DNA of 64,000 nt from a virus. A program made the position numbers and the translations under genes. Numbering within the stretch: the first letter of the stretch is position 1; the number at the start of each line of letters is the position of its first letter. The stretch lies in the IMG/VR virus record IMGVR_UViG_3300023215_000707, positions 1,150 through 65,149 of that record; one strand, 5' to 3'. Of this stretch, positions 21,141 to 36,034 are shown in pieces. Below the pieces are notes generated by a model. That model was not told the DNA's origin. It saw only the letters and a list, made by a program, of their open reading frames with translations, and searched no databases.

Positions 21141-21332
21141 TCATTCTTCATCACTATCCAATTTATTATATAATGTATCTAAAGAAAGTTGAAGATTATT
21201 TATACATAAGAATAATGCTGTATGGTCTTTAGGGTTATCCGAAGTAATACCTATTTTTTCAAGATACATTTTCATGGCTTTAGGGGTATGCCTTAAATGC
21301 CAAACATACTCTCTAATTTCTTCTTTATTCAT
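21141..21332 (-). CDS. Hypothetical protein
   Basis: In-operon ORF. Confidence 0.5.
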   Translation of the reverse strand: MNKEEIREYVWHLRHTPKAMKMYLEKIGITSDNPKDHTALFLCINNLQLSLDTLYNKLDSDEE

Positions 21333-21823
21333 TCTCCATCACCATCAAAAGTAAAATTATCCCAAATCTTTTCACTATATTTAAAGAACTTCATTTTTTG
21401 ACTATTTTTCATCCACAACATATGTTCATTATTTCCGAGAACAATTGCAGTTAGCATTTGTATTTTCCATGTATTAATAGTTCTTCTATCAGTTTCGGAA
21501 AAATACGCTTTACCAAAAGGATGAGTGTGAATCCAACATTTGACCGGCAGTTTCATTCCCTCTACACTTTCTTCATTAATAAACGACACAAAAGAACCAC
21601 TACCAACACTAATAAATAAATCATTTTTACTATCAATTACAACTTGAATTTCGCTAGGATGAGAAAACGCCGTCAGGCTCATTTCCCAAATTGATTTCAA
21701 AAAATCATTTCTATATGGTTTAAATAAAGACTCAATTACAGAAGAATCAAATTGAGTTCTTATATTCTGCTCCCAATTACCATTTAGAATAGTCTTCGTA
21801 TTACCTGCCCGTATAATCATCAT
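21329..21823 (-). CDS. JAB/MPN+ (JAMM) metalloisopeptidase
   Basis: E58 ... H99-T-H101-x7-S109-x2-D112. Confidence 0.88.
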   Translation of the reverse strand: MMIIRAGNTKTILNGNWEQNIRTQFDSSVIESLFKPYRNDFLKSIWEMSLTAFSHPSEIQVVIDSKNDLFISVGSGSFVSFINEESVEGMKLPVKCWIHTHPFGKAYFSETDRRTINTWKIQMLTAIVLGNNEHMLWMKNSQKMKFFKYSEKIWDNFTFDGDGE

Positions 21824-22032
21824 GCTCCCCCCATAAAACCAACAACCAAATCTTGCTTATTGATAAATTCATGATAGGTTTGATGACCGGCAATGAACCC
21901 CCCTGCATCTCTTTTGAGTCCTTTGAATGATTCCCCACAAGCAGGGCAGGTGACTTTAACTACTTCCGCATCAAAATATGTTCCAATAGATAGTTTAATT
22001 TTTTGAATAATAGTTCCAACTTCTTCATTCAT
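21820..22032 (-). CDS. C2H2-type Zn-finger protein
   Basis: CPAC...H...H; between E1 and JAB genes. Confidence 0.6.
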   Translation of the reverse strand: MNEEVGTIIQKIKLSIGTYFDAEVVKVTCPACGESFKGLKRDAGGFIAGHQTYHEFINKQDLVVGFMGGA

Positions 22033-22592
22033 ATATTCACCACCTTGTAATCCGCAACATCATCATTATCTACAAACCATCGCTGAATCCATTGGGCGGC
22101 CATTCCAGCAATTGCAACATGAGTAAAATGTATGCCTTCTTTTTCACCTTTCCACTCAGTTGTTTGGCAGGAAAAACTACCACTTGGACCTGTTAAAACG
22201 GTATCAAACATATCTTTAGGGGTTTTATAACTAATAAATGCCCCATTTCTCCCCTGCGCCCTCAAATCTAACCACTGCGTTAATGACCTATAAAGTAGTC
22301 TTCGCACATCTAAATTATCTGCACAACATATCACCAAATCATAACCCTTGATTTGTTTTTCAGTAAGAACTAAAAATGGTTCTGCTTTAACCACAGACTT
22401 GTAACGGTCTTGCATTGCAACAACCTTCTTTAGTTCTATTTCATCTATTTCAAAATTTTGATAAGATATATTTTTCTTTTCTATAATGTCGGGGTCATTT
22501 ACTGTAATCTTATACAATCCTGTTTTATTCAAAAGAGGAATAAGAAAACTACCTATTCCCCCTGCTCCTATTATTAATATTTTTCTTTTCAT
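22029..22592 (-). CDS. E1-like (ThiF/MoeB family) adenylyltransferase
   Basis: IIGAGGIG, D.D.IE..N, CADN..R; single candidate Cys142 in FSCQ; no CxxC pair. Confidence 0.88.
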   Translation of the reverse strand: MKRKILIIGAGGIGSFLIPLLNKTGLYKITVNDPDIIEKKNISYQNFEIDEIELKKVVAMQDRYKSVVKAEPFLVLTEKQIKGYDLVICCADNLDVRRLLYRSLTQWLDLRAQGRNGAFISYKTPKDMFDTVLTGPSGSFSCQTTEWKGEKEGIHFTHVAIAGMAAQWIQRWFVDNDDVADYKVVNI

Positions 22593-22801: not shown

Positions 22802-23163
22802 ATTTTCATCTCCAAATAATCTTCTAGAGTTTTTACATCCTTTTTGACTTCATCTATTTTAAATTCAAAGGGTGAATCGGTTAGTGATTCAGTTGGTGTT
22901 ACTACTGCTATTGCTACAATTGGTTTATTCAACATTGAAAATAGTTTATTTATTATTTTCTTTCTTGCTGAATCAAATTTTAATTTCCCACCTTCTTTCC
23001 AAGCAGTATAATTAAATTCTTCATCAATATATCCTTCAATATACATTATTAAATTAAGTAGAATATTATATTCTGCATCTTTTATTTTAGTAGGTGGATT
23101 AAATTCTTCATAATTTTCCATTAGTGACTCAAACAATTCTTGTTCTTTTACATCTAATTTCAT
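22798..23163 (-). CDS. Hypothetical protein
   Basis: ATGA-coupled ORF. Confidence 0.5.
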   Translation of the reverse strand: MKLDVKEQELFESLMENYEEFNPPTKIKDAEYNILLNLIMYIEGYIDEEFNYTAWKEGGKLKFDSARKKIINKLFSMLNKPIVAIAVVTPTESLTDSPFEFKIDEVKKDVKTLEDYLEMKI

Positions 23164-23623: not shown

Positions 23624-24254
23624 TTATATCTCTCCTAAATTCTTTTAATATAGTTTCACTAACCTTTAATTCACATAAAATCTTATAACGATGTTGGGGA
23701 GAAAACGTGTTTCCTTTTCCATCTCGGTCTTCTCTAAGAGAAATAACTCTATCATAGAGGATTCTACACCTCTCCTTACAAAACTTAGCATTTAATTGCC
23801 TTTCTGGTGTTATTCTTTCACCACAAGTTATACATTCATGGTGTTCTCTTAACATTTCTTTACACATAGGACTACAATATGGTTTATGAATTTCTGTATA
23901 TATAGAATTGGATTTATGACCCCAAAATTTCTCATCACAACTAGAGCATTTTATTATACTTTTTTTATTTTCTGGTCTTATTGCAACACAATCATCACAA
24001 GACACCTGATTAGTTCCTTTATGTGGTTTAAATTCATCACAAAAACCACAAATTCTTTCTGGAAAATTAGATTTTTCTTTTATTATTTGGCCTTTATGAT
24101 TTAGAAAAGTTATGGTTTCATATTTTCTTTTAGCCATAGTTCTTTTTAATGAATTTTGGCGAGTTTTATATCTACATTGAGAGCAAATATTTCTTGCGTG
24201 AAAAGTTCCACCCTGAAAAAAACGCTTCTCACAACGACTACAATCTCTCCACAT
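23595..24254 (-). CDS. Multi-zinc-finger (treble-clef/TRASH-like) protein
   Basis: Four CxxC...CxxC or CxxxC units, e.g. CSSC...YCSPMC and CITC...FCKERC. Confidence 0.65.
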   Translation of the reverse strand: MWRDCSRCEKRFFQGGTFHARNICSQCRYKTRQNSLKRTMAKRKYETITFLNHKGQIIKEKSNFPERICGFCDEFKPHKGTNQVSCDDCVAIRPENKKSIIKCSSCDEKFWGHKSNSIYTEIHKPYCSPMCKEMLREHHECITCGERITPERQLNAKFCKERCRILYDRVISLREDRDGKGNTFSPQHRYKILCELKVSETILKEFRRDINESKNNSSC

Positions 24255-25093
24255 TATCTAACCCCTGCAATAATATCACCGATAGTTAGACCATAGGTAT
24301 TTTTAATATTCAATAATTTTAATATGTTATTGTAATGCACCCTTATTGTAACCCCTGATACACTAAGAACTTCTGCAATCATTTTTTGAGTAATGTTCTT
24401 TTCTAATTGGGTTGTTTCTGTGAAATATATCAGGCCAGCCAAGTAAGGAGAAGTAGGGTGTTTAGATTCTAATGAATTAATATATTCATGAATATTAATA
24501 CATTCATTGATGAATTTTCTTGATTTTCCTAACCGCAAACAAAATTTCTCTAATAAAGAACCCACATTAACATTAGAAAATACATATGAAAGACCCAATT
24601 CTCTAGCAAATCCTCTAGAAAGTTTACTAATTTTCTTAGCCGGTAATTCTAACACTTTAGACATTTCTTGCAAGGTATAAGAATAATCATACTGCTTTAA
24701 AACAATATATCCTATTGCGGCGGCTCTAATTTCAAGAGGCATTTTAGTCGAGAAAATACCTTTCTTTATTAGAAGAACATAATATCTTTTCATTTCTTCA
24801 ATAGCAGGTGCGCTCATATTGAACTCACTGGCAACCATATTACAATATCTAAATCCTCTATTAATTGTCCGTTCATTAGAGGGAATGGAATGAATACGGG
24901 CAAGTCTTCTCAATTTATATGCCCCCTTTTCTTTAGAAACAAATCCGCCCAGTGTTTTATCATTATGTCTAACAAGTTCACCATCTTTAAAGGGGTTTTC
25001 TTCCATAATCAAACCATGAACTAAACCACAGTTAGGGCATTCTAGTGCTTCATTTTGTTTCACAATATCTATATTACATTCATCACATCTCAT
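24254..25093 (-). CDS. tfb: Transcription initiation factor IIB (TFB)
   Basis: N-terminal CDEC...CPNCG ribbon, two cyclin repeats, C-terminal ITQKMIAEVLSVSGVTIR HTH. Confidence 0.88.
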   Translation of the reverse strand: MRCDECNIDIVKQNEALECPNCGLVHGLIMEENPFKDGELVRHNDKTLGGFVSKEKGAYKLRRLARIHSIPSNERTINRGFRYCNMVASEFNMSAPAIEEMKRYYVLLIKKGIFSTKMPLEIRAAAIGYIVLKQYDYSYTLQEMSKVLELPAKKISKLSRGFARELGLSYVFSNVNVGSLLEKFCLRLGKSRKFINECINIHEYINSLESKHPTSPYLAGLIYFTETTQLEKNITQKMIAEVLSVSGVTIRVHYNNILKLLNIKNTYGLTIGDIIAGVR

Positions 25094-25133: not shown

Positions 25134-26357
25134 CTATTGAAACAGCGAAATTCTTTGGTTAGTTTGGTTTAGGGTATGCCTACTATTTAACCTTCCCTTA
25201 ATAGTTGATACCCTTTCAATTAAAAGATTGTCGTTTAACAGCCCTAATGCTCTAGTTACGAATTGGTCGCCAGTAGGTGAATTATTATCAAGATTATCTA
25301 CACAAATAGGCCCAATCCAATTTCCGTCAGTTAAGTCCCTGCTATGCTCCCAAAGAAAGGTAGATACGTTTTGTTGGCCTTGAGATTTCAAGCCTCTATC
25401 CGTAAGTTTCCAATCGGCAAGTTTACCATTAATATACATGATAGTGGGAGTTTGTGAAACATCTAGTAATTTATCTGGTGAACCCCAATTAATCTTAATT
25501 CTATTGGGGTATCTATTAGATAGGTGTATCATTAAATCTCTAGCCCTTTCTTTCACTACTTTTTCTGTTCTATTTTGGCTTAAGAAACAAAGCATTAACT
25601 GTTCTTCACTTTCAGTAAGGTTTCTTTTCATTAATTTGAACCATAGTTCCGAAGGACTTAGATTCGACCACTTACTTTGTTTTCTTTTCTTAATATAAGA
25701 ATTAAGATAAGAGTTGAATTGTTTTATTGTTAATTCACCCCAAACCCCATCGGAGATTTCTAATGCTACATTGTTATCAGAAATAAGATTAGCGTTAAGT
25801 CTGCATTCAATCTTCTTTTGATAACTACCTCTAATATCATCTTCTATATCAATGAAGAAATAATATGGCGCACGATTTTCTAATGCATAAGATACCATTT
25901 CTGGTAATTGAATATGTTTTATTAAAAATCTCTCCAATTCAAAAGAATCTTCTGTAAAACAAGACTTGTATATAGTTCTAGCAAGGGAAGAAATTAATAC
26001 TTCTTTATTAGCCATCATACCATTAATATAATACCGAGTCTTTGCCTTATTAAAAAGAATTACAAATCCTGAATCACCAATATAAATTGTGTGGCTAAAT
26101 TCCACAGGTGCATTTGCGGCTTCTTCTATTGGCCTATAATAACCCCTACGATATGTTTTATTGTAAAGATTTTTACGACTCATTTTCAATTCACCCATTA
26201 ACCAAAGTTTGATAGATTCTATAAGTGGATTAATTGCACTTCTATATCTAGTGGGGTATAAAGTCACTGTATGATAATGACCCTCTTCACCAAATCGTAT
26301 CATAGTTGAATCATATTGTCCTGAATCATCGGGTCTTCTAATTAATAATTCGGGCAT
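25134..26357 (-). CDS. 407-aa protein with C-terminal E2 (UBC)-like segment
   Basis: GPIC352VDNL...SP.....V...L.LL.D resembles the UBC active-site region G.ICLDIL...WSP...LL.D; same operon as Ubl, E1, JAB. Confidence 0.55.
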   Translation of the reverse strand: MPELLIRRPDDSGQYDSTMIRFGEEGHYHTVTLYPTRYRSAINPLIESIKLWLMGELKMSRKNLYNKTYRRGYYRPIEEAANAPVEFSHTIYIGDSGFVILFNKAKTRYYINGMMANKEVLISSLARTIYKSCFTEDSFELERFLIKHIQLPEMVSYALENRAPYYFFIDIEDDIRGSYQKKIECRLNANLISDNNVALEISDGVWGELTIKQFNSYLNSYIKKRKQSKWSNLSPSELWFKLMKRNLTESEEQLMLCFLSQNRTEKVVKERARDLMIHLSNRYPNRIKINWGSPDKLLDVSQTPTIMYINGKLADWKLTDRGLKSQGQQNVSTFLWEHSRDLTDGNWIGPICVDNLDNNSPTGDQFVTRALGLLNDNLLIERVSTIKGRLNSRHTLNQTNQRISLFQ

Positions 26358-26507
26358 TTATCTCACTTCACTTTTGTATGCTCTAATACAAGAATCATGT
26401 AATTCTTGTTGTATTTCGGTAATATAGGTTAATTGTTTACCACAAAGCCTACATCTAGTTGCAACCGGTCCTCTTAATCCTTTAGTATATTGGGGGTTTT
26501 TAGACAT
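26358..26507 (-). CDS. Small Zn-finger protein (49 aa)
   Basis: Hand-translated ...CRLCGKQL...HDSC... Confidence 0.65.
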   Translation of the reverse strand: MSKNPQYTKGLRGPVATRCRLCGKQLTYITEIQQELHDSCIRAYKSEVR

Positions 26508-27133: not shown

Positions 27134-27334
27134 TTAAAGTCCGCCAACAATAGCGGGAATCAAATCAACTTCAGTCACTTCATCCCAATTTAGCGATGCA
27201 ATATCACTTCGATTAACCATTTCACCATCAGCAAAAACCCAGTGGGTTGCGTGTTCGTTTATATGGTCCATTATTTCGCTAGTTGCAATCGACATTTCAG
27301 TATGTCCTGTTTCGTTTAGTATTCTCAACTTCAT
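27134..27334 (-). CDS. Ubiquitin-like (ThiS/MoaD beta-grasp) protein ending GG-L
   Basis: 66 aa with beta-grasp order, WVFADG strand, C-terminus VDLIPAIVGGL. Confidence 0.8.
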   Translation of the reverse strand: MKLRILNETGHTEMSIATSEIMDHINEHATHWVFADGEMVNRSDIASLNWDEVTEVDLIPAIVGGL

Positions 27335-27588
27335 ATTTCTCTCTCCATTATTTTATTGTTCTGTTCACTTATTAAGGTGTTCTTTTCTTGTATTCTGCCA
27401 CCCATTACGGTTACTGTTTTCTCGTAGTGGGTTGCAAGATTCTCTAATTCTCTAACTCTATTCTGCATTTGTGTAACATATATAGTTAGGGCATTCTTAT
27501 CGGTTAATAATTCTTCTACATTACTAGCCAATACTTCATTTTCTTTAAGTTTTATGTTTAATTCTTTTTCTAATTCTATTTTTTTCAT
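27331..27588 (-). CDS. Coiled-coil protein
   Basis: Heptad pattern; ATGA overlap with the Ubl gene. Confidence 0.6.
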   Translation of the reverse strand: MKKIELEKELNIKLKENEVLASNVEELLTDKNALTIYVTQMQNRVRELENLATHYEKTVTVMGGRIQEKNTLISEQNNKIMEREI

Positions 27589-27730: not shown

Positions 27731-28993
27731 TCATTCTTCTTCACCACTTGGATTTTTTAATTCATCAATCATTTGACTTGCATCTCGCTTAGTAAGGTCT
27801 GTATTAGGTATTCCACCTAATTTACGAATATAAGATAATTGTTTTTCTGTAGCCTTATCATCTTCACCTTTAACAATCCTAATTGTCCTAAATAATTGCT
27901 TTTCCGACATGAAATTTCCACTGTGAATTTTACCAATCATATCTACTAAAAAGGAGATTTCCCAATCATTATTACCATGCGATTCAGCAGTAAATATTGG
28001 AATATTATGCTTCTCACAAAAATTAGGTATTCGCAATGCTATTTCTTTTTGCTCTTTTTCTATCCTCTTTTGTGTTTCTGCTCGTCGCTTTCGGTATAGT
28101 ATATTTTCCTCTTTTTCTCTAACTCTTCTTTGAGCCTCTTCTGCTTCTTTTCTTTGTTTAATTTCAGCGAGTCTTTCTTTACGTTCTGCTGTTGCAACAT
28201 TTATAGTTTCTTTATGTTTACCAATATTAAAGTAAAATATCAACAAATCATTCCAAAGTCTATTATTAGGATAACCTCTAATATTGGTTTGCGCTTTAGT
28301 ATTATCTGGATGATTCCATCGCCAAACAATTGATGCCATAAAATAATGAGGTGTTCCCATTTTACCTTCTGCTTTCTTACGAATTAATTTTGCATATTCA
28401 GTGCGAGCAGTTTCATAATCTTGATATGGTTTTCCCTGTCGAGTATTTATAAATAAATCTACTTCACGAACAACTTCAAACATTTTTTCAAATTCTTCCC
28501 CATTCTCTTTCCACCACCATTCGGATTTCATTGAATTTACAGCCTCTAGAACCCATTCTTTGACTCTTTCTTCGGTGACTTCATCTTCGGGCATTTCTAA
28601 ATTTTCTATTAAATGTCGAACAATCATCCAAAATCCAATATGTTCACTACCAACAATTTCAATCCTATTATTCTCAGTATTTTCAATTTCAAAATGCCAT
28701 GCGATAGAATGCCCACATATACAATAATGTGGATGAGATTGATTATGAGGCGATGGTAATACATCTTCTGCATCATCATTCATTGGCACATACCAAACAT
28801 TACCAGTTGCTCGCCATTCTTTTCTTGCTTCTTTCCAATTATCCGCTTCGGATAATGCTGTTAGATTATCTTTTAGGGCGATATTATATGCCCCTGTTGG
28901 GTCATCCAATCTCCCTGTAATTGCATCTAATAGAACATTACCTGTTGCTACAAATTCCGCTCCTTGTTCTCTAACTCTTCTTGCTATATTCAT
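27731..28993 (-). CDS. Large hypothetical protein with Zn-binding segment and C-terminal DUF3072-like motif
   Basis: CICGH..W...VGSEH; ATEKQL.YI..LG...LTK..AS..ID.LK. Confidence 0.6.
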   Translation of the reverse strand: MNIARRVREQGAEFVATGNVLLDAITGRLDDPTGAYNIALKDNLTALSEADNWKEARKEWRATGNVWYVPMNDDAEDVLPSPHNQSHPHYCICGHSIAWHFEIENTENNRIEIVGSEHIGFWMIVRHLIENLEMPEDEVTEERVKEWVLEAVNSMKSEWWWKENGEEFEKMFEVVREVDLFINTRQGKPYQDYETARTEYAKLIRKKAEGKMGTPHYFMASIVWRWNHPDNTKAQTNIRGYPNNRLWNDLLIFYFNIGKHKETINVATAERKERLAEIKQRKEAEEAQRRVREKEENILYRKRRAETQKRIEKEQKEIALRIPNFCEKHNIPIFTAESHGNNDWEISFLVDMIGKIHSGNFMSEKQLFRTIRIVKGEDDKATEKQLSYIRKLGGIPNTDLTKRDASQMIDELKNPSGEEE

Positions 28994-35833: not shown

Positions 35834-36034
35834 TCATTCTTCCTCACCACCAGTTATCATCTTAATATTTATTACATTAGTGCTATTCAAGAGTATTTGT
35901 TCTTCTTTCATTTCTTTTCTATACGTTACTATTACTCTTGCTTGTTGCCATACCAAATATAATTCATGTTCATATGTTCTCAATTCTTCTATACTAATTT
36001 CGTGCATTTCTTCTGTTGTTTTTAATTGACTCAT
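35834..36034 (-). CDS. Hypothetical protein
   Basis: Coupled ORF. Confidence 0.5.
   Translation of the reverse strand: MSQLKTTEEMHEISIEELRTYEHELYLVWQQARVIVTYRKEMKEEQILLNSTNVINIKMITGGEEE

Follow-up and report, generated by a model that had tools for sequence, protein, structure and literature searches.

The question raised by this locus is whether a virus of archaea encodes an unrecognized ubiquitin-conjugating (E2) enzyme. The DNA examined is a 64,000-nt window, positions 1,150 to 65,149 of the 72.8-kb IMG/VR virus record IMGVR_UViG_3300023215_000707; coordinates below are those of the window. The gene in question, designated E2L here, encodes a 407-amino-acid (aa) protein, and its open reading frame (ORF) is confirmed at 25134..26357 on the minus strand. 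An original prediction, made from the sequence alone, had placed a cryptic E2 active site at Cys352, near the C-terminal end of this protein. The reading favored here, with moderate confidence, is that the C-terminal 150 residues are a new and very divergent UBC-fold (E2-like) carrier domain with Cys352 as the catalytic residue, working with a ubiquitin-like protein (Ubl), an E1, and a JAB peptidase that are all encoded by the virus.

The window also codes for a split family-B DNA polymerase, RFC, an ATP-dependent DNA ligase, a thermosome-type chaperonin, and a TFB-like protein. Such a gene set identifies the group A magroviruses, which infect Marine Group II (Poseidoniales) archaea and are among the most abundant archaeal viruses of the surface ocean (PMC5434244). 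Ubiquitin, ThiF, or JAB genes are not mentioned in the magrovirus papers searched, and no paper describing a magrovirus E2-like module was found; the one relevant archaeal-virus paper found, an Asgard-virus preprint, reports E1-like genes only, and says that such genes were previously undescribed in archaeal viruses. If Cys352 is a true E2 cysteine, an entire virus order encodes its own pathway of Ubl conjugation in full; a family without the HPN (His-Pro-Asn) motif, out of reach of sequence profiles, joins the E2 superfamily; and both early E2 evolution and virus-driven tagging in archaea become testable with four small recombinant proteins.

A single conserved cysteine in the E2L family

Translation of positions 25230-25313 (minus strand) yields exactly GPICVDNLDNNSPTGDQFVTRALGLLND, the GPIC352 motif that had been proposed for the C-terminal end of the protein. 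It comprises a loop bearing Cys352 (codon 25302..25304, minus strand) and a predicted crossover helix, and is delimited by its translation, its conservation, and the predicted Ubl interface; conservation, position, and predicted interface also make Cys352 the candidate thioester-forming residue.

Homologues of E2L number 92 in a 90%-clustered collection and 164 in a 50%-clustered library, are 375-490 aa long, and come without exception from marine metagenomes or viral bins. The conservation of Cys352, on which the original prediction depended, is borne out: it is present in 172 of 173 full-length homologues, the lone exception appearing locally garbled, and it is the only conserved Cys in the protein. 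An alignment of 38 sequences shows it to be invariant together with D354, N355, G363, D364, Q365, R369, N375, D376, and T385. D354 and N355, which follow it and are nearly invariant, are the nearest conserved polar residues. Conservation is concentrated in this part of the protein, residues 259-385 holding 17 of the 24 positions with a conservation of 95% or more. No conserved His or Lys column was found among the 173 sequences, the His columns reaching at most about 42%. A sole conserved Cys without a conserved His is consistent with an E2 rather than with a Cys-His protease, and a papain-like or other Cys-His peptidase of the deubiquitinase type can be set aside on the same grounds.

The motif is confirmed, but the likeness to an E2 core that had been seen by eye is statistically undetectable. 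The sequence G-x-[LIVP]-C-[LIV]-x(1,2)-[LIVR], which we take to be the second half of the PROSITE pattern for the UBC active site, appears in 0.5% of shuffles of the 407-aa protein and occurs twice in the ~24,000 aa of ORFs in the window, and by itself the motif therefore falls short of significance at window scale. The observation is counted as real because Cys352 is conserved, and not on the strength of the by-eye alignment.

Predicted fold of the C-terminal domain

The C-terminal UBC-like domain (residues 256-407; 25137..25592, minus strand) is delimited by its predicted fold. An AlphaFold2 (AF2) model of full-length E2L has a predicted local distance difference test (pLDDT) score of 83; residues 256-407, modeled with an alignment of 96 diverse homologues, reach a pLDDT of 89.7 and a predicted template modeling (pTM) score of 0.84. 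The predicted order of elements is a helix (257-282); strands at 287-290, 306-310, 315-320, 331-338, and 345-351; Cys352; a 10-residue loop; and helices at 362-374, 376-382, and 384-387. In the model, Cys352 sits between the last strand and the crossover helix (362-374), whose cap is S360-P361. Canonical E2 enzymes have their catalytic Cys followed by a crossover helix, alpha2, capped by SP(A), and the modeled placement of Cys352 is the same as in this Cys...SP-alpha2 arrangement.

Structure searches give a mixed picture of the UBC fold. With VIA-align, a search independent of Foldseek that covered 48,161 representatives, the matches are almost all UBC-superfold chains, both for the whole protein (model residues 264-404) and for the domain alone. 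For the domain these include the ELF domain of FANCL (score 5.9, 85 residues, 3.0 Å), two RWD domains (5.1 and 4.8, 110 and 109 residues, 4.3 and 3.8 Å), E2S (4.8, 118 residues, 4.8 Å), UBE2F (4.7, 127 residues, 5.3 Å), and Ubc9 (4.5, 97 residues, 4.1 Å); UEV domains, kinetochore RWD domains, and BRE are also in the list. Foldseek, on the other hand, found nothing significant in the PDB with either the whole model or the domain model, its top rows being E2 enzymes at E 0.6-2 and a template modeling (TM) score of about 0.35. A structure search of AFDB Swiss-Prot found nothing, one of BFVD returned only members of the E2L family, and a feature search of the ESM Atlas stayed below 0.9, the Atlas's own model being poor. 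The UBC superfamily is dominant in three separate structure searches.

Thermoplasmatota, the phylum of the host, have hypothetical proteins of 640-783 aa that also match the domain, at TM 0.60-0.63. Structure matches in AFDB are to Thermoplasmatota proteins of 684-814 aa, and the whole E2L model aligns with the last 300 aa of a 684-aa entry there. In one case, nearly the full 407-aa architecture is covered. These matches between predicted structures suggest a cellular counterpart of E2L with an extra N-terminal half. At the sequence level, no cellular homologue of E2L was found by a scan of genome contigs or by a profile search with the most divergent family members; the latter yielded no longer or additional relatives either, and GenBank phage records contain no match. 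The sole match to the family in a GTDB genome is a 1951-bp contig (CAXBMW010000043.1) binned in a Balneolaceae bacterial metagenome-assembled genome, most likely a mis-binned magrovirus fragment.

The region ahead of the domain was originally described as roughly 290 aa without a recognizable domain; no known domain was indeed matched, but the region is about 255 aa long. It is folded and conserved, for example at LPENVSYALENRAPY and EISDGVW. Internal repeats were considered and rejected, hhalign comparisons of residues 1-150, 151-262, and 256-407 having found none; three tandem UBC/RWD-like units are not claimed, the sole basis for them being a similar order of secondary structure elements.

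The viral Ubl and its predicted docking

A 66-aa ubiquitin-like protein ending in ...PAIVGG-L is encoded at 27134..27334 (minus strand), and is assigned from its 252 homologues and its predicted binding to the E2-like domain. Mean column identity across the family of 252 sequences is 74%. An invariant GG precedes a variable tail, usually of 0-2 residues, which is the pattern of a Ubl precursor in need of trimming.

Complex prediction for the E2-like domain with the Ubl gives a score of 0.63, against 0.00 for the best of three controls. Of 80 solved complexes, 58 attain this mark, as do 2 of 110 mismatched pairs; these counts are approximate here because custom alignments were used. Contacts agree between runs to at least 93%, with a partner pLDDT of at least 83. 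On the E2L side, the predicted interface takes in the Cys loop and crossover helix (352-361, 364, 367-369, 371-372, and 374-375), further residues beyond them (378-379 and 382-386), and part of helix 1 (268, 271-272, and 275). On the Ubl side it consists of the beta1-beta2 loop (4 and 6-11), strand residues 30-41 and 55-57, and the tail (59-66, including G64 and G65), which is in contact with the Cys352 loop. Interface residues of E2L are more conserved than its other residues (mean 0.64 vs. 0.38, Mann-Whitney p = 4e-6). From the model, we infer that the Ubl pose, a predicted non-covalent one, resembles the closed state of an E2 charged with ubiquitin (E2~Ub).

Linked genes

Downstream of E2L are genes for a minimal ThiF-type E1 of 187 aa (22029..22592, minus strand; Pfam ThiF, E = 2.3e-17) and a JAB/JAMM peptidase with an intact E...HxH...S..D motif (21329..21823, minus strand; Pfam Prok-JAB). 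Alignments show Cys142 of the E1, within GSFSCQ, to be invariant, as are E58, H99, H101, S109, and D112 of the peptidase. Directly upstream is a gene for a 49-aa Zn-ribbon protein (CxxC...HxxC; 26358..26507, minus strand; ORF call), whose stop codon abuts the E2L start codon; its C19, C22, H37, and C40 are invariant in five viruses. To judge from their sequences, all three partner genes look active, and the Zn-ribbon protein could be an obligate partner of E2L or a minimal E3-like piece. Between E2L and the E1 lies a TFB/TFIIB-like gene (24254..25093, minus strand), with a weak Pfam TFIIB match just under the cutoff (23.2 vs. 23.6 bits); a gene in the same position in four divergent magroviruses encodes 276-326 aa, with Zn_Ribbon_TF and/or TFIIB matches in three.

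Four divergent magrovirus contigs share the order Zn-ribbon (55-56 aa), E2L, TFB-sized gene, ThiF E1 (about 185 aa), JAB; the Ubl gene is 0.7-3.4 kb upstream in the three contigs with enough upstream sequence. The module genes span about 6 kb, with the TFB-like and Zn-ribbon genes interleaved. Synteny was surveyed at 163 loci in all, mostly from IMG/VR, with counts restricted to loci with enough flanking sequence. Starting from E2L, the E1 and JAB genes are both found at 72 of 72 loci with enough downstream flank, the Ubl at 52 of 52 with enough upstream flank, and a Zn-ribbon gene directly upstream at 69 of 74 with at least 400 nt there. Starting from the Ubl, E2L is found at all 70 loci with at least 9 kb downstream. 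Along with the predicted docking, this strict linkage lends support to an E2-like role.

Evidence against an E2-like function, and alternatives

Several points weigh against an E2-like function for E2L. No sequence or profile method ties the domain to an E2, Prok-E2, RWD, or UEV family: searches for UQ_con, Prok-E2_A-E, UFC1, RWD, and UEV at E ≤ 10 with the protein, 38 full-length homologues, and 96 domain homologues found none; Pfam, PHROGs, and PADLOC scans of the same sets gave nothing relevant, leaving the 407-aa protein without a Pfam or PHROGs family and its homologues without a Pfam domain; and neither the domain profile nor the 41-aa motif region has a sequence match in the PDB. The HPN motif, which the original prediction had also not seen, is absent upstream of Cys352; just ahead of GPIC the domain is at its most variable and richest in indels, with no conserved His, Pro, or Asn at residues 339-348. 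Because it has neither a profile match nor an HPN motif, E2L cannot be placed in any described E2 family, and is treated here as a protein that would work like an E2 and not as a family member. The equation of Cys352 with the E2 cysteine in the models is by topology and range arithmetic, not by coordinate superposition. The docking result may reflect fold-level memory of solved E2~Ub structures, and the higher conservation of the interface is not independent of it, because the predictor used the same alignments. Co-occurrence may reflect shared descent, because all of the linked genes are in the strongly syntenic core block of a single virus order. An E2 is also not strictly required, because archaeal sampylation works with an E1 alone. 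Finally, the non-catalytic ELF domain of FANCL and RWD folds match the domain as well as true E2 enzymes do.

The last of these points would be accounted for if the domain were a non-catalytic module of the UBC/RWD/UEV kind with no role beyond binding the Ubl, whether as an adaptor, as a scaffold for the E1 or JAB, or as a reader of conjugates, with Cys352 serving in packing or as part of a binding surface. This is considered unlikely. Known UEV, RWD, and ELF domains do not, to our knowledge, have the cysteine that is invariant in E2L, where it is the sole such Cys, lies in the loop touching the Ubl tail, and is followed by the nearly invariant D354 and N355. E2L is accordingly not assigned to the RWD, UEV, or FANCL-ELF groups: its fold matches theirs as well as it does that of E2 enzymes, yet it has an invariant Cys.

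Another alternative is a role in sulfur transfer. The Ubl might be a sulfur carrier of the ThiS/MoaD type, with Cys352 taking part in a sulfur relay (as a persulfide or acyl-disulfide) to a thiolated cofactor or tRNA base during infection. The 66-aa Ubl does end in GG, and a homologue is called “sulfur carrier protein ThiS” in one source; the E1, at 187 aa, is of a minimal ThiF/MoeB type; JAB peptidases are also established to act on precursors of sulfur carriers (CysO/Mec+); and archaeal SAMPs serve in both roles. However, no PP-loop motif is apparent by eye; the called genes and Pfam matches of the conserved block include no rhodanese, ThiG/ThiH, or MoaE-like gene; and the Cys domain is predicted to have a UBC-like fold, a fold of protein conjugation. 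Sulfur transfer is judged improbable. Membership in the core block would suit a replication or transcription accessory factor unrelated to the Ubl system, its UBC-like topology and Cys motif being coincidental, but there is little likelihood of this given the docking score relative to the controls, the predicted contact of the Cys loop with the Ubl tail, and the dominance of one fold superfamily in three separate structure searches.

Proposed mechanism

If E2L does function like an E2, a magrovirus would probably tag proteins by means of its own machinery. From what was obtained here (gene structure, conservation, synteny, predicted fold, and predicted docking), we infer every chemical step, the order of the steps, and the existence of targets as follows. 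The JAB peptidase would trim the one or two residues past the GG of the Ubl. The minimal ThiF-type E1 would adenylate the exposed C-terminus, probably by way of the invariant Cys142 in its crossover loop, and Cys352 of E2L would then receive the Ubl as a thioester. There the Ubl would be held in a pose like that of closed E2~Ub, with its beta-sheet face on the crossover helix (362-375) and its tail at the Cys352 loop, and would then be moved onto a lysine of some target. The choice of target is a matter for guesswork; it might lie with the ~255-aa N-terminal part together with the coupled 49-aa Zn-ribbon protein. The original idea of a fused E2/E3-like ligase, with an N-terminal region that selects substrates, is just as speculative.

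A more ambitious version of this scheme is that the 407-aa protein and the Zn-ribbon protein constitute a self-contained E2/E3 of an unrecognized E2 family, which together with the viral Ubl, E1, and JAB would mark host proteins for inactivation or for the archaeal proteasome. Its targets might be host basal transcription factors, to be replaced by the viral TFB-like protein. In Haloferax, a basal transcription factor, TBP2, is known to be modified by a Ubl (PMC4895103), and by analogy this is suggestive, given the TFB-like gene inside the magrovirus module. The self-contained E2/E3 is regarded as doubtful; if real, it would amount to a virus-driven, ubiquitin-style takeover of the host in archaea.

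Comparison with known systems

Canonical E2 enzymes with a UBC core (UQ_con; UbcH5/UBE2D, UBE2K, UBE2S) have the alpha-beta-alpha topology that is predicted for E2L, with 109-126 residues aligned over the whole UBC core, and likewise a single essential-looking Cys ahead of the crossover helix. The E2L sequence G-x-I-C-[VI]-D-x-[LM], with its S-P helix cap, resembles what we take to be the corresponding E2 sequence, GxICLDIL...WSPA. Closed E2~Ub and the predicted viral complex both have the Ubl on the crossover helix and its tail at the Cys. Differences are that E2L has no detectable sequence or profile similarity to these enzymes and no HPN; that it has an extra fifth strand, ending at the Cys, and is fused behind ~255 aa; and that its partners are a ThiS/MoaD-like Ubl of 66 aa and a 187-aa E1 that has neither a UFD nor a separate Cys domain. 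To the HPN-less E2 enzymes UFC1, Atg3, and Atg10, and to the non-catalytic UBC folds of FANCL ELF, RWD, and UEV, E2L has no sequence relation.

Archaeal sampylation (SAMP1-3, UbaA, and HvJAMM1 in Haloferax; PMC4895103, PMC4443979) resembles the magrovirus system in its ThiS/MoaD-like modifiers ending in GG, its MoeB/ThiF-type E1, its JAMM peptidase, and its archaeal setting. The magrovirus system differs in always including a conserved UBC-like protein with a single Cys. We know of no E2 for sampylation.

In gene content, the closest parallels are the bacterial Bil operons (BilA Ubl, BilB E2, BilC JAB, BilD E1) and the Ubl-E1-E2-JAB classes of Iyer, Burroughs, and Aravind (PMC1779556), which have the same gene set as the magroviruses: a Ubl ending in GG that needs trimming, a ThiF-type E1, a JAB, and an E2-like protein with a single Cys. 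Unlike Bil, the 96 magrovirus domain homologues have no PADLOC or Pfam Prok-E2 match; the genes extend over about 6 kb and are interspersed with those for the TFB-like and Zn-ribbon proteins; the E2-like domain makes up the C-terminal part of a 407-aa protein; and the carrier is a virus of archaea, not a bacterial defense island.

Other features of the window

A 70-aa CxxC protein encoded between the E1 and JAB genes (21820-22032, minus strand) ends in ...MGGA. Its close relatives end in GG(A/V), and more distant ones do not end in GG; it was considered as a second Ubl and rejected, since distant family members have no terminal GG.

Six minus-strand ORFs end in [ED]-E-[ED] (five EEE, one DEE), encoded by ...GA(A/G)GAAGA(A/G)TGA. 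The gene junctions concerned are at 27731-27734, 27585-27588, 23160-23163, 17060-17063, 21329-21332, and 35834-35837, all on the minus strand. In five of the six, an embedded ATG overlaps the TGA and is positioned to start the next gene; for the ORF ending at 17060, the next gene begins with GTG. Three of the six carry a GGTGA motif just ahead. The acidic tail looks like a by-product of coupled stop and start codons and a ribosome-binding sequence, and homologues in other magroviruses have the same acidic tails.
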